From a phage: a DNA stretch of 64,000 bases. Made by a program: the position numbers and the translations under genes. The stretch lies in NCBI GenBank assembly GCA_012628545.1, contig GCA_012628545.1_3035.1; one strand, written 5' to 3'. Shown here one piece after another: positions 516 through 58,698 of this stretch. Numbering within the stretch: the stretch's first letter is position 1; the number at the start of each line of letters is the position of its first letter. The notes under the pieces are model-generated. The model did not search any database, was not told the origin of the DNA, and saw only the letters and a list, made by a program, of their open reading frames with translations.

Positions 516-544
516 AAAATAAAAAAGGACTCCCGAAGGAGTCC
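516..544 (-). terminator. rho-independent terminator
   Basis: Hairpin ggactcc-cgaa-ggagtcc (UUCG loop on minus strand) followed by U-run. Confidence 0.5.
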
Positions 545-549
545 TCAAC

Positions 550-24458: not shown

Positions 24459-24463
24459 ATTGA

Positions 24464-24489
24464 GGGAGCCTTCGGGTTCCCTTTTTCTT
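24464..24489 (+). terminator. rho-independent terminator after gene 35
   Basis: GGGAGCC-UUCG-GGUUCCC hairpin followed by UUUUU. Confidence 0.6.
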
Positions 24490-28100: not shown

Positions 28101-28413
28101 AAGCGCTCTTTATGCGGGAAGTAACAACTCTCCTGGTACTGGTTCTATAAGAGGATCCGCCGGTGGTGGTAATACGCTTGGAACTTCTTCTTCTGGGGCA
28201 CATTCGCACTCTATATCTGGTACTGCTGCAAGCGCAGGCGCTCACGCGCATACTGTTGGTATTGGTGCTCATACCCATACTGTAGGTATCGGTGCTCATA
28301 CCCACACGGTAGCAATTGGCTCGCATGGTCATACTATCACTGTAAATAGTACAGGTAATACAGAAAACACGGTTAAAAACATTGCTTTTAACTATATTGT
28401 TCGTTTAGCATAA
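25192..28413 (+). CDS. 37: long tail fibre distal subunit (receptor-binding tip)
   Basis: 1073-aa ORF; His-X-His repeats and conserved C-terminus [11 protein letters not shown] as in T4-type gp37. Confidence 0.9.
27958..28030 (+). repeat. tandem 30-nt coding repeat in gene 37 ([10 protein letters not shown] x2.3)
   Basis: Two full and one partial copies with identical peptide but different serine codon families. Confidence 0.6.
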
Positions 28414-28417
28414 GGAG

Positions 28418-28433
28418 AGGGGCTTCGGCCCCT
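28418..28433 (+). promoter_or_regulatory. hairpin between Shine-Dalgarno and AUG of gene 38
   Basis: AAGGAGAGG then GGGGC-UUCG-GCCCC then UUCUAAAU AUG. Confidence 0.45.
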
Positions 28434-28440
28434 TCTAAAT

Positions 28441-28992
28441 ATGAAAATCTATCATTATTATTTTGACACTAAAGAATTTTACAAAGAAGAAAATTACAAA
28501 CCTGTTAAAGGTCTCGGTCTTCCTGCTCATTCAACAATTAAAAAACCTTTAGAACCTAAAGAAGGATACGCAGTTGTATTTGATGAACGTACTCAAGATT
28601 GGATTTATGAAGAAGACCATCGCGGCAAACGAGCATGGACTTTTAATAAAGAAGAAATTTTTATAAGTGACATTGGAAGCCCGGTTGGTATAACCTTTGA
28701 TGAGCCCGGCGAATTTGATATATGGACTGATGACGGTTGGAAAGAAGACGAAACATATAAACGCGTTTTAATTCGCAATAGAAAAATTGAAGAATTATAC
28801 AAAGAATTTCAAGTTTTAAATAATATGATTGAAGCTTCTGTCGCGAATAAAAAGGAAAAATTCTATTATAAAAACCTTAAGCGATTCTTTGCTCTTTTAG
28901 AAAAGCATGAGCATTTAGGTGGTGAATTTCCCGCATGGCCTGAAAAAGAACGGAAACCTTGGTATAAGCGTTTATTCAAGCATTACGTATAA
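28441..28992 (+). CDS. 38: tail fibre assembly chaperone
   Basis: 183-aa ORF; matches T4-type gp38 by length and sequence recall. Confidence 0.85.
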   Translation: MKIYHYYFDTKEFYKEENYKPVKGLGLPAHSTIKKPLEPKEGYAVVFDERTQDWIYEEDHRGKRAWTFNKEEIFISDIGSPVGITFDEPGEFDIWTDDGWKEDETYKRVLIRNRKIEELYKEFQVLNNMIEASVANKKEKFYYKNLKRFFALLEKHEHLGGEFPAWPEKERKPWYKRLFKHYV

Positions 28993-34304: not shown

Positions 34305-34385
34305 TCACTGGCGTCCGAAGACGCCTTTAGTTTTAAGATTGTTACGATAAAACTGCATCACATGTTCGTTGTGGAAATTACTCAT
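34305..34385 (-). CDS. stp: Stp peptide (26 aa)
   Basis: Hand-translated [26 protein letters not shown]; ATG overlaps ndd stop (TAATG). Confidence 0.7.
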
Positions 34386-36119: not shown

Positions 36120-36677
36120 TTAAATGGAAAGATACCATCCGTTGTAGTTGCTTTTTCTTACAACCTTACGAAGGTCTTCTCTGTCACCGATGAACTTCGG
36201 AGTGTACTGGATGACACCTGGATGAATTTCTTTAGTGTTGAATATAATTATACAGTCAGCGACTTGATGATTTAGAATGGGCCCTAGATTTATTCCAGAA
36301 CCATATGGATACTCTCCGCTGCATCCTGTTGTTACCGAAATCCAACGTGAGTCAGTTTGATGTGTCTTAACTTCTACGCGAAGCCCACAGTATTTTGGAT
36401 GCGCCAATACATCCCATGCATACGTGTACGGATCATCGACATCTTCTTGACCTTTATTAACATACCCGCTTAACCAATCTGCTACAAAAAACTCTGCGTA
36501 CACAGCGATACGACATCTTTCGATAACTTCTGCCTTATCCTGGTTCGGGTTTTGTTTTAAAGAGTATCTTGCTGTATCAGCAATTTTGACCTTCATTTCA
36601 TTGGTTAAATCGCTGTTCGATAGAGTAAATGTCGGAATCTGAAATAGTCTCTGCAAACCCGGATTCGTTTTCTGCAT
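36120..36677 (-). CDS. denB: endonuclease IV
   Basis: 185-aa ORF; T4 DenB length and position next to rIIB. Confidence 0.7.
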   Translation of the reverse strand: MQKTNPGLQRLFQIPTFTLSNSDLTNEMKVKIADTARYSLKQNPNQDKAEVIERCRIAVYAEFFVADWLSGYVNKGQEDVDDPYTYAWDVLAHPKYCGLRVEVKTHQTDSRWISVTTGCSGEYPYGSGINLGPILNHQVADCIIIFNTKEIHPGVIQYTPKFIGDREDLRKVVRKSNYNGWYLSI

Positions 36678-36720
36678 TTAAACTTTCCTTTATGTCGGAA
36701 TCATAATTTCTCTTAAAACA

Positions 36721-36740
36721 AAAGGGCCGAAGCCCTTATT
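36721..36740 (-). terminator. UUCG-loop hairpin after ORF 36741..36935
   Basis: aagggc-cgaa-gccctt followed on minus strand by U-rich tract. Confidence 0.4.
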
Positions 36741-36935
36741 TTATTTGAATTGTGCGATTCTTTTCTCTAAACATTCAGCATAAGATTTCATTGAGATGAA
36801 CTGTGAAAGCAGTAATTCTTGCTCAACTTCATTAATCGTTAGAAACTTTGTGCTTTCTAAAAATTTGCTCAGTGCATTAATTTTGAGCATTAATTGATCG
36901 TATTCTTCTTTTACTCGTGCTTGATAACCTAACAT
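36741..36935 (-). CDS. hypothetical protein
   Basis: 64-aa ORF flanked by two identical hairpins. Confidence 0.45.
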   Translation of the reverse strand: MLGYQARVKEEYDQLMLKINALSKFLESTKFLTINEVEQELLLSQFISMKSYAECLEKRIAQFK

Positions 36936-36951
36936 AATTTTCCTTAATATG

Positions 36952-36970
36952 ATAAGGGCCGAAGCCCTTA
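36952..36970 (-). promoter_or_regulatory. intercistronic UUCG-loop hairpin at rIIB stop
   Basis: Same 17-mer aagggccgaagccctta as at 36722..36738. Confidence 0.35.
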
Positions 36971-37906
36971 TTTAAATTGTTCAGTAACGTCTTCAACTAC
37001 TTCGTATTGGCAGGTACGCATTTTAGCATCGTTGTAATCAATCGGAATTGATACTACATCACGTGGATGTACTTTAACTTTTACAACTCGGCTGGTTGAA
37101 CTGCCAAAGTGACGAATATAAGATTTAGAACACACATGCAGACCACGAGAACAAGTTTGTGTATCATCGTCATTCACACGAGTACGTGGCATTTTAACTA
37201 CTTTACCAGGACTGTTATCAAAGGTGTTTGAGTGACAGTCAAAGTAGTTGTCACGAACTACTTTCCAAGCATAGAAGTAACCATCTTCTGTAATTTCAAT
37301 ATCGTTTGCTACCAAGAAATCAAAGAGTCGAGATACCGCTTTCTGGCTTGGGTTTTCCAGCAGATTTTCCAAGAACGGAAAATAAAATTCAAAGTTTTCA
37401 CCTTTTTCCATCGAGTCAAGAATACGATCAACTAAACCAGATCGCAATTCAATATTTTGATAGAACAAGCTTCCACCTTCAATTCGAACATCACCGGAAA
37501 TATATTTTTCAACAGCGCGGCGAACATTAATTTTTTGTGCCGCTTCTTCCAATTTATCTGCAACAAGCAGATTAAGAATTTCCTGGAAGTTTGAATGAGT
37601 ATTAGGAGTTGCGTTATAAGTTACACCATCAACAGTAATTGAAATGAATTTTTTAGATGCATTCCAAATAATGTCAGATTTAGCAACTGGAGCAATAGCT
37701 ACATCACTCTTAACTTCAACTGTAATGTCACCGCTAATGGTAACTTTAGGACGTTTAGCTTCTTCAGCATTTTTCAAAACACGACGGATTGTGTCAACCG
37801 ATACACCTTGCCAATCAGCCAATTCCTGTTGGGTGTAATTACCACTTGAATACAGTTTGACAATTTCAGCTTGTTCGTTTTTGGTCAGGCATTTAATATT
37901 GTACAT
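36968..37906 (-). CDS. rIIB: rIIB protein
   Basis: 312-aa ORF; T4 rIIB length and synteny. Confidence 0.9.
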   Translation of the reverse strand: MYNIKCLTKNEQAEIVKLYSSGNYTQQELADWQGVSVDTIRRVLKNAEEAKRPKVTISGDITVEVKSDVAIAPVAKSDIIWNASKKFISITVDGVTYNATPNTHSNFQEILNLLVADKLEEAAQKINVRRAVEKYISGDVRIEGGSLFYQNIELRSGLVDRILDSMEKGENFEFYFPFLENLLENPSQKAVSRLFDFLVANDIEITEDGYFYAWKVVRDNYFDCHSNTFDNSPGKVVKMPRTRVNDDDTQTCSRGLHVCSKSYIRHFGSSTSRVVKVKVHPRDVVSIPIDYNDAKMRTCQYEVVEDVTEQFK

Positions 37907-37917
37907 AATTTTCCTTA

Positions 37918-40095
37918 TTAGGCCGCAAGGGCCTTCATAGTTTTAGCGATTTGGGAAACTTCATCATCACTTAAAGAGTTGCGATAACCGATGAAGTCGG
38001 AAACAATACGGAATTTCTTGGTAAACTCAGCAACCATTTTATCACTATTTTTTGAAGCATTACGTGATAATTCATCAAAGAGATTAGTTACTGTCCAGAT
38101 ATCATGACCGATGGTATCTTTTCCACCATTGAAATACACACCGCGTAATGAACTAACCATATTACCAAGTCGTGTATATTCTTCAGAAACTTCATCTGTA
38201 CTGAAGTACTTCATCATAAAATCTAGTTCAGGATACTTGATAATTTTATCAATATATCGTTGAGCTGAACTTGAATAACCTACATACTTATCATAATCTA
38301 CATCATCAAAAGCATCTACATATAAATCACGCAAAGCTTCAAAAATACATTGGCACTGACCGAGTTCTTTTACCTTTTTCTGTAAAAGCGGACGAATAAC
38401 ATAAAATTCATTAATGCCAATAAGATTAGCCATACGAATCAAAATATTCATAGATGGATGACAAAGTGATGTAGTACCATCCATAGAGAAAATATCAGAA
38501 CGATGCATATACGCTACATAACCAGTAATTTCATCTGCTTCTGACGTAAGTGTAAATAATTCCTCTTTTTCCCAACGCCCGTCTTTAATTTCAAACTTAA
38601 ATGCTGTAGCAGCTTTAGGACGAGGAGCTTTACTTTTAACTACCTTTGGAATATAGCTTTTAACTAAAGCTTCAATTTCTGACAAATAATGAATGTTAAC
38701 TTCATCACTTTCAAACATTGCCATAATATCAGGTAGTAAATCAATCTGCGATTCTACTTCCGGATTAATAAACAGAAGACGCTCATTGTGATGAATATTT
38801 AAAGTGTTATTAAATTCACTATCATCTAGCGCATGTGCTAATCCACGGACAATATTAACACGATTTTTAATATTATCAATAACGATATTAATTTTTGTTG
38901 TATTAATACCAAACAGACGATAACTTGACGCAACGGCTGATGTTTCATGACTTTGCTTAATGCGTTTCAGTCGAGGGTCAAGATTTACTTCATACACAAC
39001 TCCTGCATTGCATAACTTACTGTCAGGTTCAAACATGCTCTGCATCTTTTTATATGACAGATTTTTAGTCGTGAATTTGACTGAATTACTAATCATATAA
39101 TCTCGAGCAGAATACCCCATCTTCATCAATTCACGATATGTGTGACGAGGAGATGTAGATTCTTTAAATCGTTTTACATCTTCATTAAATGCTTTCTCAC
39201 TGAGTTCTTTAACTCGTTCAATAATATTTTTACGAGTACGATCATCCAGTGAAAGAGCCTCGCGAGATGGAGCAATATCCAGTGAACCCATTGGAAACTT
39301 AATGTAATTCACTTCATTGCGAATGCTTAGCCAGTTACGGTCTCTAATAACACCATCGATAGGATAAACAATACCGCCATAGATAGCATATAATCCACCA
39401 CGATCAGGCCAGTATCTTTCTGGATTTACACCATAATAATCATCAAAATCAGGAAAATAATCAATTTCGCGGTCAAGACCATTAATGATAGCCAAATCTT
39501 TGAACGGTCGCATGATATAAGAAACTTCATAAGCAAAGTTTCTAAAGTCTTTTTCTTCAACTGGAACTACGATTTCAATACCAGTTTTATCATCTGGACC
39601 CATTTCTTTTACGAATGTAGGTTTAATCTGTGGGCCATCACCATCCATGTAAGCTACATAACCACGAATTTCACCTTTATGATACGAAGTAATACTAAAC
39701 GTATCAGTATAACTAAACGGAGATTTAGAACCTAAACCAAATCCGCCAATAAAGTCATTAGATTCAGCCTTAGATGAACTGAAGTATGAATTATACAGCC
39801 CAGGAGAATTATCATCACCCTGAATATCAAAATCACTCATACCCGGACCAAAATCTCGACAAACAAATCGTGGATCTAATCGTCCTGGAACTTGAATGAT
39901 AAATTTTTCAGGATTTCCATTAAGTGCATGAGCATCAATCATGTTAGTAATCAATTCACGGACTACTGCGCGAATCTTGTTTGTATACAAATCAGATGAC
40001 AGAATTTTAAATACTTTAGGATTTGCTGCGATGCTAAATGCTTTTGATTTAGAACCATTGCCAAGAATTGTTTCTTTTTCAGTGGTGATAATCAT
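37918..40095 (-). CDS. rIIA: rIIA protein
   Basis: 725-aa ORF; T4 rIIA length and synteny. Confidence 0.9.
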
Positions 40096-40105
40096 AATTT
40101 CCTCA

Positions 40106-40378
40106 TTAATTCATATTACGTTTAATAACTTCAGCAACTTCTAGTAGTTCATCTTTAGTTGCGGTGTCGGATTGAATTTTATCTCTAATATCTTTAAAGC
40201 GGTTTTTAAATTCTTCGGCTTCTCCCATATCGAAAAAGCGTTGAATGATTCTATATTCTCGATGAACTGCTTTATCAAAAAGTTCTAAATTTACTCTATA
40301 TGATTTCATTTCAATATCCTCATTTGCCCAATTAATTATACCACATCCTTGTGTAAAGTAAACTACTGGCTCATCCAT
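40106..40378 (-). CDS. hypothetical protein
   Basis: 90-aa ORF. Confidence 0.5.
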
Positions 40379-42183
40379 TCTTTACGAAGGTCAGCATTAT
40401 CTCCCATGAGCATTTCAAAAAGCTCTTTCCAATTCTCAGGAAGTTTAACAACATCATATACTGGATTTTGAATCATCTCACGATATTCAGATTTTTCCAA
40501 AGAGCCAAGTCCCTTAATATAACGGATGCTATGTTTAGGTAGAGCATCTTTGGCACTCTCATATTCAGCGACTGTATAAAACCATTCTTGTTTTTTACCG
40601 ACCTGAGCGATGATTACAGGAGTTTTGACAAAGCGAATTCGTCCTTGCTCAAACAATTCTGGCCAATTACTAAAAAATCCGAGCAGAGAAGGATAAATGC
40701 TTCCTAGACCATCATGGTCAGCATCAGTCATAATAGCAATATTGCGATAATTCAAGTTTTCAGCTTTTTCACCAAGAACTAGACCAGTGATTGCGCAAAT
40801 ATCAAATAGTTCTTTGTTTTTAAGCATATCGGCATATGACATACCCCAGCTATTAAGAACTTTACCGCGCAATGGATAACCACCATGAAGTTCTTTATCG
40901 CGAACATCAATAAGATATCCGATAGCTGAATCACCCTCAGTCAAGAACAATGTAGTGTCAGCATCTTTACCGCAAAGATTCGCTTTAATATGTTTATGAA
41001 CCTTAGCTTTAGAAGCCTTTTTAGCTGCTTTAGTTTCTGCTGCTTTTTCTGCCGCCAATTTACGAGCCAAAGCAGCTTCAATAATCGGCATCAGAATTGC
41101 TTCATTATTTAGAATAGCGCGTGAAATCTTTTTAGCGTCAAGTTGAATATGACTACGAATTTCGCCAAATGGAGAAGTCAAACGCTCTTTAGTTTGAGAA
41201 TCAAATCGCATGTTTTTCATATCACGAACAAACATAACGATAGTCAAACATTCTTTGACACGTGCTTTAGTTACATCAATTTTGAACTTACGTTTGATTT
41301 GTGGAATAAGGTCTTCACAAATATCATCCATAACACAGTCAATGTGATGGCCACCATTCTTAGTGTGAATGTTATTCACGTAAGTTAATTGACGAAATCC
41401 ATCCGGCGAACGACCAACCGCAATAGAACAATTTTCTTGTTCTTGAACAATAGCATGTTCATCATACTGTCGTGCATATTTCTTAAAATTACCCTGAACC
41501 TTTTTACCATTAAAGGTAAATTGAATATCAGGATAAACAACAGCAAGTGTCTGGAGACGATCTAGTGTAATGTCAAGATAAACTTGGGACAGCTCATTAG
41601 TTTCAAATGACATAAAATCAGGAATGAAAGTAACACGGGTTCCTTTCCATTTTCCAGGAATATCTTCCCATGATTTATTTTCCATGCCGTTTGAACAACG
41701 AACTACAATATTATTTTGACCATCGCCAGTTTCACCAACAAACATCACAGAAAAAATGTTTGTCAAACTAGAACCAACGCCATTCATACCACCGGTGACA
41801 CGTTCTTTATCATCACCGAAGTTACCACCTGCTTTTGGAATAGTCCACGCAGCAACAGGACCAGGAATTTCTTCACCGGTAGGTGTTTTAACCATCGCCT
41901 GTGGAATACCACGACCGTTATCTTCAACTGTTACTTGATTATTTTTAATAGTAACATTAATTTTATTTGCGAATTTAAACTTAGTACGAATACCTTCATC
42001 TACTGAGTTATCGATAATTTCATCAATAAGCTTAACAAGACCAGGTACATACTGAACACTTTCCCATTTACCAAACAGAAATCGCTCATGCATTTCATTA
42101 GCTGAAGAGCCAATGTACATGCCGCTACGCTTTTTGATATGTTCAATATCGCTCAGAATTTTAATTTCATTCTTAATCATCAC
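40363..42183 (-). CDS. 39: DNA topoisomerase II large subunit (GyrB-like), gene 39 and gene 60 parts in one ORF
   Basis: 606-aa uninterrupted ORF; GHKL ATPase N-terminus; C-terminus carries the T4 gp60 sequence (NVAIMTDADHDGLGSIYPSLLGFF...). Confidence 0.9.
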   Translation of the reverse strand: MMIKNEIKILSDIEHIKKRSGMYIGSSANEMHERFLFGKWESVQYVPGLVKLIDEIIDNSVDEGIRTKFKFANKINVTIKNNQVTVEDNGRGIPQAMVKTPTGEEIPGPVAAWTIPKAGGNFGDDKERVTGGMNGVGSSLTNIFSVMFVGETGDGQNNIVVRCSNGMENKSWEDIPGKWKGTRVTFIPDFMSFETNELSQVYLDITLDRLQTLAVVYPDIQFTFNGKKVQGNFKKYARQYDEHAIVQEQENCSIAVGRSPDGFRQLTYVNNIHTKNGGHHIDCVMDDICEDLIPQIKRKFKIDVTKARVKECLTIVMFVRDMKNMRFDSQTKERLTSPFGEIRSHIQLDAKKISRAILNNEAILMPIIEAALARKLAAEKAAETKAAKKASKAKVHKHIKANLCGKDADTTLFLTEGDSAIGYLIDVRDKELHGGYPLRGKVLNSWGMSYADMLKNKELFDICAITGLVLGEKAENLNYRNIAIMTDADHDGLGSIYPSLLGFFSNWPELFEQGRIRFVKTPVIIAQVGKKQEWFYTVAEYESAKDALPKHSIRYIKGLGSLEKSEYREMIQNPVYDVVKLPENWKELFEMLMGDNADLRKEWMSQ

Positions 42184-42232: not shown

Positions 42233-42250
42233 AAAGGCCCGAAGGCCTTT
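42233..42250 (-). promoter_or_regulatory. intercistronic UUCG-loop hairpin
   Basis: aaaggcc-cgaa-ggccttt between ORF 42250..42519 and gene 39. Confidence 0.35.
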
Positions 42251-52915: not shown

Positions 52916-52940
52916 AGTGCTCTCCTCTATAAGATAATTC

Positions 52941-52972
52941 TATTATACCATACTCATTTTGATATGTAAACC
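52941..52972 (-). promoter_or_regulatory. early promoter
   Basis: GTTTAC (rc of 52967..52972) and TGGTATAATAG-like -10. Confidence 0.4.
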
Positions 52973-52981
52973 GGTAAAATG

Positions 52982-53008
52982 AAAAAAGGAACCCCGAAGG
53001 ATTCCTTA
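52982..53008 (-). terminator. rho-independent terminator after soc
   Basis: aaggaa-ccccgaagg-attcctt hairpin (UUCG loop on minus strand) plus U-run. Confidence 0.5.
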
Positions 53009-58335: not shown

Positions 58336-58698
58336 TTAAAAGAATTTAAACTTTTTCTTTGACCTTTTATTAAATGCATCTTGTAGTTGCATTGTAATAC
58401 ATTTTTCTACATGAGGAGCTAACTCAGCTTTTCTTTCTTGGTCAAGAACAGCAAAGTCCATTACGACTTTTCCATTAACCCAATCTAATTTTGTCACATA
58501 CACAATGTGTGTAGAACCATCTTCTAGTTTAATGACAATCTCCTGGATAACATTTTCCATGGCAGATTTAATTATCTTAAGAGACTCATTAAAAAGACGT
58601 TCTTTTCTTTCTTCTTCCCCCTCCGAAGAGGGGGATTCATCGATAATTTCTAGATCTAAATCTAAATCATCTTTATTCATTAAATTCTTCCATATCAC
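58336..58698 (-). CDS. 40: gp40 head-assembly accessory protein
   Basis: 120-aa ORF between uvsX and 41. Confidence 0.6.
   Translation of the reverse strand: MIWKNLMNKDDLDLDLEIIDESPSSEGEEERKERLFNESLKIIKSAMENVIQEIVIKLEDGSTHIVYVTKLDWVNGKVVMDFAVLDQERKAELAPHVEKCITMQLQDAFNKRSKKKFKFF

Follow-up and report, generated by a model that had tools for sequence, protein, structure and literature searches.

The region studied here lies in a window of 64,000 nucleotides, the whole stretch of phage DNA that was analysed, and shares about 96% identity with many genomes of Tequatrovirus (T4-like phages). Annotated relatives and T4 itself give the minus-strand gene order rIIA, rIIB, denB.1, denB, and the gene context proposed in the initial annotation (rIIB, a 64-aa ORF, denB) is correct. 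An identical 17-mer, AAGGGCCGAAGCCCTTA, stands at the end of rIIB and again at the end of denB.1, and on the minus-strand RNA each copy is predicted to fold into a hairpin, called here hp1 (rIIB/denB.1) and hp2 (denB.1/denB). From upstream to downstream on the minus strand, the locus contains the following features.

37918-40095, minus strand: rIIA.
36968-37906, minus strand: rIIB, 312 aa, the gene upstream of hp1.
36952-36971, minus strand: hp1, AUAAGGGC-UUCG-GCCCUUAU, with the rIIB UAA in its 5' arm and the tail CAUAUUAAGG, which is not a U tract.
36933-36947, minus strand: denB.1 translation initiation region, UAAGGAAAAUUAUGU.
36741-36935, minus strand: denB.1, 64 aa, between hp1 and hp2.
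36722-36737, minus strand: hp2, AAGGGC-UUCG-GCCCUU, with its GC core at 36724-36735.
36715-36723, minus strand: the U tract of hp2, UUUUGUUUU, a putative terminator tail.
36690-36704, minus strand: MIPT*, a four-codon remnant in which the Shine-Dalgarno and start sequence AAGAGAAAUUAUG is kept.
36120-36677, minus strand: denB, endonuclease IV, 185 aa, downstream of hp2.

The small ORF between the hairpins, denB.1, is a real gene. Its product matches Pfam PF21825 (crAss001_48-related; E 2e-19) as well as PHROG 774, and its initiation region agrees at all of 15 nt with the one of rIIB (37904-37918); the RegA operator sequence quoted for rIIB (PMC3014915) is present within it. MIPT*, on the other side of hp2, is what remains of a 109-aa ORF that is located after hp2 in RB33-type relatives. 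A promoter scan returned 16 sites where 11.6 were expected, and no promoter-like site was found between hp2 and the denB start codon. Within denB.1, a search by eye for a MotA-type middle promoter gave a partial TGCTTTC box with no properly spaced –10 element. A candidate promoter spanning hp1 (TTTAAA-16-TATCAT) was rejected, its 9/12 match being at chance level and its –10 element being absent in T4-type variants.

The repeats are real and far from a chance occurrence. In the 64 kb window the 17-mer has exactly two copies, at 36722-36738 and 36954-36970 as first reported, with no further match at up to two mismatches, and it had 0 occurrences in 100 dinucleotide-preserving shuffles. Both copies lie 3' of minus-strand genes: the one after rIIB includes the rIIB stop codon (UAA 36970-36968) and the one after denB.1 starts 4 nt past the denB.1 stop (UAA 36743-36741). 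The direct repeat extends past the 17-mer to 41 nt at 78% identity, with a spacing of 232 nt, and the two junctions share ACAAUU(U/C)AAAUAA upstream and AAG(G/A)(A/G)AAAUUAUG downstream. Fold prediction agrees with the GGGC-UUCG-GCCC structure originally drawn for the minus-strand RNA. Both hairpins persist in the minimum free energy and centroid folds of a 351-nt region, in which no long-range structure was found beyond local hairpins (z –0.46). On the minus-strand early/middle mRNA rIIA-rIIB-denB.1-denB, the two 17-mers specify one and the same RNA hairpin, AAGGGC-UUCG-GCCCUU.

The two hairpins are not isolated in this DNA. We counted as members of the class all hairpins with a C(UUCG)G loop and a stem of 5 bp or more that includes 3 or more G-C pairs. 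The window contains nine, against an average of 0.08 in dinucleotide shuffles, none of which gave more than 1, and C(UUCG)G was the commonest tetraloop type among the 100 tetraloop hairpins found. In all nine, UUCG reads in the sense of the surrounding genes, twice on the plus strand among the tail-fibre genes and seven times on the minus strand, and eight of the nine fall between annotated genes when mapped to T4. Besides hp1 and hp2, the members are listed below with a d'Aubenton-Carafa-type terminator score (d), which is approximate because we used our own implementation with current energy parameters.

525-546, minus strand: hairpin with U tract after gene 30.9, terminator class, d = +53.
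24462-24483, plus strand: hairpin with U tract between genes 35 and 36, terminator class, d = +44.
28417-28434, plus strand: hairpin at 37/38, between GGAG and the gene 38 AUG, marginal, d = +11.
34310-34325, minus strand: hairpin between stp and ac, no U tract, d = –24.
42233-42250, minus strand: hairpin between 39.1 and 39, marginal, d = +5.
52986-53007, minus strand: hairpin with U tract after soc, terminator class, d = +31.
58616-58635, minus strand: hairpin just after uvsX, within the 5' part of gene 40, no U tract, d = –13.

The class comprises two functional types, one scoring as terminators and one not (hp1, stp/ac and uvsX/40). The uvsX/40 hairpin has 8 bp and a predicted energy of –15.9 kcal/mol, the stp/ac hairpin repeats the stop-hairpin-Shine-Dalgarno layout of hp1, and the soc hairpin differs from its T4 counterpart by compensatory changes (A-U to C-G and U-G to U-A). 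The initial annotation had listed other UUCG hairpins in the window; those are real, but their coordinates were slightly off and the hairpins at 34310-34325 and 58616-58635 were missed. It had also left unrecognised that these elements, nine of them in the window, form a class long known from T4. At the gathering threshold Rfam 15 matched nothing anywhere in the window, and at 36600-37100 there were only chance-level matches (E of 2 or more). We also observed that the old T4 reference has single-base deficits at three class hairpins, which is consistent with gel compression but gives no more than a hint that the hairpins form in real RNA.

The hairpin after denB.1 has the features of a Rho-independent terminator. 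hp2 folds with 6 bp at –9.4 kcal/mol in a 31-nt context (z –1.95), the first two U of UUUUGUUUU also pairing with the AA of its stem, and this G-C-rich stem is followed by at least 5 U in 8 (UUUUGUUUU). It scores d = +26 and was the sole minus-strand terminator-like site at a gene end that a consensus scan detected between 35500 and 38500. The UUUUGUUUU tail is invariant in 17 Tequatrovirus sequences, all of which contain both hp1 and hp2. The site is already marked as a terminator in the GenBank records of Kha5h, Aplg8, fPS-65 and G28; the G28 record marks both hp1 and hp2 as putative terminators, and the Merlin record marks its equivalent. The terminator-like character first ascribed to the copy at 36722 is supported by this tail, score and annotation, and by the recurrence of a hairpin with U tract in other genera. 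We predict that hp2 is a Rho-independent terminator that would end a fraction of the rII/denB.1 transcripts and leave them with an exonuclease-resistant 3' hairpin. Its G-C core is just 4 bp (–6.3 kcal/mol), and hp2 may therefore be a weak terminator. We infer that it must be leaky because there is no promoter-like site between hp2 and the denB start codon, and in RB33-type phages the next ORF and denB directly follow hp2, so that denB transcription must read through it. hp2 would accordingly be an attenuator and not a full stop, with denB transcription reading through.

The hairpin after rIIB lacks such a tail. hp1 folds with 8 bp at –11.9 kcal/mol (z –3.8), and none of 200 shuffles was equally stable. 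After its stem the sequence, (UUAU)CAUAUUAAGG, does not reach 5 U in 8, the terminator score is d = –2.2, and the simple consensus terminator scan left the site unflagged. The stem is kept in all Tequatrovirus sequences read, while the 3' flank differs by substitutions and indels (UUAUCAUAUUAAGG, UUAUCACAUUAAGG, UUAACUAAGG and UUGACUAAAGG), and no U-rich tail follows hp1 in any relative examined. That the stem is kept while the adjoining bases drift argues for a function that resides in the RNA structure; the loop is under no absolute constraint, because two relatives carry UUUG in place of UUCG. The stability or processing role first suggested for the copy at 36954 is plausible, and it would fit the missing U tract, the conserved stem beside a varying 3' flank and the low terminator score. 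Without a U tract at hp1, RNA polymerase would be expected to read through it. The likeliest role of hp1 is that of a structural hairpin which does not terminate transcription but protects or insulates the message, a post-transcriptional boundary within the polycistronic RNA. Its most likely function would be that of a 3' exonuclease barrier giving segmental stability to the rII message, as decay running 3' to 5' into the rII segment could be stopped there once the RNA is cut downstream. It could also keep the AU-rich denB.1 ribosome/RegA binding site out of long-range pairing. The searchable literature yielded neither mapped RNA 3' ends nor Northern blots nor half-lives for this locus, so termination at hp2 and protection at hp1 are predictions.

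Comparison with other genera shows how the hairpin and denB.1 are arranged around the end of rIIB. The relatives came mostly from GenBank phage records, IMG/VR contributing 5 loci through the denB.1 protein and 9 through the rIIB protein. Outside Tequatrovirus the corresponding positions are occupied as follows.

Gaprivervirus: GGGGC-UUCG-GCCCC, no U tract, after rIIB and followed by denB.1; no second hairpin.
Moonvirus (Merlin, CF1): AAAGCCC-UUCG-GGGCUUU with U tract, after denB.1; rIIB and denB.1 overlap (UAAUG).
Mosigvirus: GGGGAC-UUCG-GUCCCC with U tract, directly after rIIB; no denB.1.
Jiaodavirus: GGAGCC-UUCG-GGCUCC with U tract, directly after rIIB; no denB.1.
Gelderlandvirus: GGGAC-UUCG-GUCCC with U tract, directly after rIIB; no denB.1.
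Lazarusvirus: hairpin with a UUAC loop at the same position.
Tegunavirus: hairpin with a GUAA loop at the same position.

Four arrangements thus occur across genera: hairpin-denB.1-hairpin, hairpin-denB.1, denB.1-hairpin and hairpin alone. In Moonvirus, Mosigvirus, Jiaodavirus and Gelderlandvirus, a UUCG hairpin with a U tract lies just upstream of the same downstream ORF, the stems differing, and from these arrangements it follows that the hairpin with U tract is always just upstream of the ORF preceding denB. A hairpin between rIIB and denB.1, in contrast, never has a U tract in any genus compared. In an ungapped alignment of 11 hairpins, 6 of the 7 stem pairs show substitutions in both partners, and pairing holds in 94.8% of cells against 73.5% in shuffles, a figure that is partly built in because the aligned sequences were picked by a hairpin finder. 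What is informative in the alignment is that a hairpin is always at that position, with different stems.

Why the two copies in this phage should be identical has, we think, more than one answer. Among the matches listed, AAGGGCTTCGGCCCTT was seen as an exact 16-mer in over 120 unrelated viral contigs, sometimes as several copies flanking small ORFs, and at least 5 T in 8 follow 46% of the 83 copies read. The identity is explained in part by this being a minimal, stable hairpin that is widely reused. The likeness of the two junctions goes beyond the hairpin: rIIB and denB.1 both end in QFK* (...CAAUU(U/C)-AAA-UAA), an ending that is F* in the orthologues from other genera. In EC.W14-2, 26 of 27 nt agree between the two junctions, and in Sf24 all hairpin copies share an extra G. 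The hairpin and its AAAUAA stop-codon leader were probably duplicated when denB.1 came beside an ancestral rIIB terminator, and the four cross-genus arrangements fit such a placement of denB.1 with duplication of the hairpin in Tequatrovirus.

We consider it probable that hp2 is a leaky terminator and hp1 a read-through post-transcriptional hairpin, both of the T4 C(UUCG)G class. That hp1 is itself a functional but weaker intrinsic terminator, which would place denB.1 between two terminators and end rII transcripts mainly after rIIB, seems unlikely. Its stem-loop is the same as that of hp2, its tail UUAUCAUAUU has 6 U in 10, its score is near the threshold, and the G28 record annotates a putative terminator of –10.0 kcal/mol at this site. 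However, beyond the absence of a flag in the simple terminator scan, the tail is not conserved, reading UUAACUAAGG in T4-type sequences, UUGACUAAAGG in fPS-65 and UAAUGAGG in Gaprivervirus with U runs of at most 2–3, and in Moonvirus the overlap of rIIB and denB.1 leaves no hairpin between them, so the two genes are co-transcribed there. The same Moonvirus arrangement speaks against a role in translation, in which the hairpins would insulate the AU-rich ribosome/RegA site from upstream RNA or uncouple it from terminating ribosomes; in addition, the conserved U tract of hp2 points to termination instead. We regard this explanation as improbable, notwithstanding a layout that suits it in several respects: the shared AAG(G/A)(A/G)AAAUUAUG comes within 6–10 nt after each hairpin, the denB.1 initiation region repeats the 15 nt of rIIB's, the initiation region of rIIB likewise has a G-C hairpin (AGGCC-CUUGC-GGCCU) ahead of it, the rIIB stop codon is within the hp1 stem, and the 37/38 UUCG hairpin sits between a GGAG and a start codon.

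Two further explanations were weighed. The hairpins could primarily be the borders of a gene cassette, direct repeats serving the insertion, excision or exchange of denB.1, much as promoter-early stem-loops (PeSLs) mediate modular shuffling in RB49 and phi1. Such borders would be suited by the existence of four cross-genus arrangements, as they would by an identity that reaches the last codons of both upstream genes (ACAATTYAAATAA before the hairpin, with the QFK* endings) and the near-identical EC.W14-2 junctions. T4 recombines at microhomologies of 2–10 bp (PMC9391042), and PeSL pairs flanking ORFans give deletions and mini-circles (PMC2839356). Against this, denB.1 is present in 497 records compared with 498 that have the Tequatrovirus rIIB 3' end (at least 90% identity), which indicates that the repeats do not drive visible cassette loss, and no hairpin-to-hairpin deletion of denB.1 was seen in the best 25 matches to a synthetic junction, all of which were two-piece matches with denB.1 retained. 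Moreover, no promoter adjoins either hairpin, the end points of the Sf24 duplication lie outside the hairpins, and the 16-mer is common in unrelated phages, so that identity can arise by convergence. We find the cassette explanation quite unlikely. A version of it in which AAAUAA-GGGC-UUCG-GCCC-UU is a portable gene end, copied onto rIIB and denB.1 and still recombining at low frequency as a promoter-less PeSL analogue, is likewise doubtful; if it were true, denB.1 could be excised as a 232-bp circle, or cassettes could be swapped between co-infecting phages. It is extremely improbable that the repeats function as DNA and not as RNA, for instance by forming a cruciform, binding a protein or being cut by a nuclease. 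An inverted repeat is of course present on both strands, and hp2 fits the terminator pattern on its plus strand as well, but all nine class hairpins carry UUCG and not CGAA on the transcribed sense strand, the compensatory stem changes include G-U pairs, which are workable only in RNA, and the hairpins are placed precisely between stop and start codons.

A leaky terminator at hp2 together with a read-through hairpin at hp1 would mark the probable end of the rII transcription unit in this phage and separate the likely terminator from its look-alike. Because they share the same stem in the same genome, hp1 and hp2 are a clean natural pair for testing a UUCG hairpin with and without a U tract. 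Across genera, one hairpin position is kept, with denB.1 before it, after it or between two copies. The locus is a tidy example of small genes settling around terminators in T4-type genomes; it leaves current understanding unchanged, and the finding matters little beyond annotation.

Among known systems, the PeSLs of RB49, phi1 and other T4-like phages (PMC2839356, PMC4122927) are alike in being repeated stem-loops that border an ORF both small and non-essential within an early region that varies, in using the hairpin as a terminator and in a surrounding gene arrangement that differs between genera, and the proposed duplication of the hairpin resembles PeSL-mediated shuffling. Here, too, the motif is found on both sides of a small ORF, denB.1. 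Unlike PeSLs, hp1 and hp2 are without the promoter half, have only two exact copies and follow another loop and stem consensus, and close relatives do not differ in whether they carry the flanked gene (497 of about 498 records). We rejected membership in this family for lack of an adjoining sigma-70-type early promoter and of presence/absence polymorphism of denB.1. With the Rho-independent terminators of E. coli and its phages, hp2 shares a G-C-rich stem, a stable tetraloop, a U tract and a position after a stop codon; it differs in a G-C core of 4 bp and in having to permit read-through, and hp1 differs in the missing U tract. Closer in proposed action to hp1 are the REP elements, intercistronic stem-loops that confer segmental mRNA stability in bacterial operons, for example between malE and malF. 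As is suggested for hp1, they block the 3' exonuclease between cistrons and give segments differing stabilities, but REP elements are longer, are host repeats and have a different sequence.

The closest likeness is to the intercistronic CUUCGG hairpins of T4, a class described in 1988, and hp1 and hp2 are members of it; what was already known also includes the annotation of these sites as terminators in relatives. The T4 hairpins are said to comprise terminators, stabilisers and translation elements. A passage in PMC8948821 on Tuerk et al., 1988, states that hairpins of the form (X)2-8CUUCGG(Y)2-8 are common in phage intergenic regions and especially abundant in T4, that they stop reverse transcriptase and that their functions are varied. 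hp1 and hp2 share with this class the loop, the C-G closing pair, the complementary flanks, the intergenic sense-strand position and the enrichment. Nothing essential differs, the particular feature of the present locus being that two copies are identical over 17 nt.

The initiation region of denB.1, the 64-aa ORF bracketed by the two identical UUCG-loop hairpins hp1 (on its rIIB side) and hp2 (on its denB side, with a U tract), reads UAAGGAAAAUUAUGU (window 36933-36947, minus strand) and shares a 15-nt identity with the initiation region of rIIB (37904-37918, minus strand), a classical RegA target. In addition, the initiation region 3' of hp2, GAAAUUAUGAUU (36702-36712, minus strand), includes AAAUUAUGAUU, the sequence quoted as the RegA operator of gene 44. 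Together, these two sequence matches suggest that denB.1 may be repressed by RegA. A further hairpin stands before the rIIB initiation region:

37920-37934, minus strand: G-C hairpin AGGCC-CUUGC-GGCCU at the extreme end of rIIA, immediately upstream of the rIIB initiation region

With this hairpin, three successive gene junctions repeat one layout, a hairpin and then UAAGGAAAAUUAUG.

The interval between hp2 and denB varies among related phages (L019, 371-700; L020, 371-965). RB33-type phages carry a 109-aa ORF there, of which only a 4-codon remnant (MIPT*) is left in the window (36690-36704, minus strand) and which is shrunk to about 15 codons in T4, both reductions apparently having arisen by deletions between short direct repeats. 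In Sf24, a tandem duplication has produced a third copy of the hairpin and a chimeric ORF. Another difference from T4 lies in the topoisomerase region, where a single 606-aa ORF (40363-42183, minus strand) occupies the place of T4 genes 60, 60.1, mobA, and 39, and the genes 60-39 region is about 1 kb shorter than in T4. Accordingly, the topoisomerase large subunit is unsplit in this phage, and the gene 60 bypass element is absent.

At three UUCG hairpins, the T4 reference NC_000866 lacks a single base: hp1 is one G short (GGC/GCCC) and hp2 one C short (GGGC/GCC; both in L002, 3700-3960), and the hairpin at the 37/38 junction (T4 159626-159642) is one C short relative to window 28417-28434. In a modern T4 record, OL964745 (L034), the stems of hp1 and hp2 are each GGGC/GCCC, and the older record D16359 (L035) agrees with it at hp2 only. 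The deficits in the reference are probably gel-compression errors.

The hairpin sequence also occurs in unrelated viruses. In two IMG/VR viral contigs (L092 and L085), the exact sequence AAGGGCTTCGGCCCTT is found two or three times, each time followed by a T tract, at spacings of 340-670 nt and with similar flanks, which indicates that the bracketing of small ORFs by identical putative terminator hairpins is not peculiar to T4-type phages.

Elsewhere in the window, the most stable UUCG hairpin (58616-58635, minus strand; 8 bp, -15.9 kcal/mol) lies within the 5' portion of the gene 40 coding sequence, immediately past the uvsX stop, lacks a U tract and has the same sequence in T4. In the 28405-28445 region (plus strand), the 37/38-junction hairpin has GGAG on one side and, 8 nt past its stem, the gene 38 AUG on the other, and would draw a distant Shine-Dalgarno sequence near the start codon; such an arrangement is known for T4 gene 38. 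Finally, the UUCG terminators after 30.9 and soc each have an early-promoter-like GTTTACA-17-TA(G/T)(T/A)AT about 25 nt or less beyond them (regions 480-546 and 52940-53007, respectively, both minus strand). The two corresponding T4 sites are 89% identical to each other over 38 nt, a stretch that includes one and the same hairpin, GGACUCC-UUCG-GGAGUCC. These terminator-promoter composites resemble the PeSLs, the promoter-early stem-loops of RB49, phi1, and other T4-like phages.
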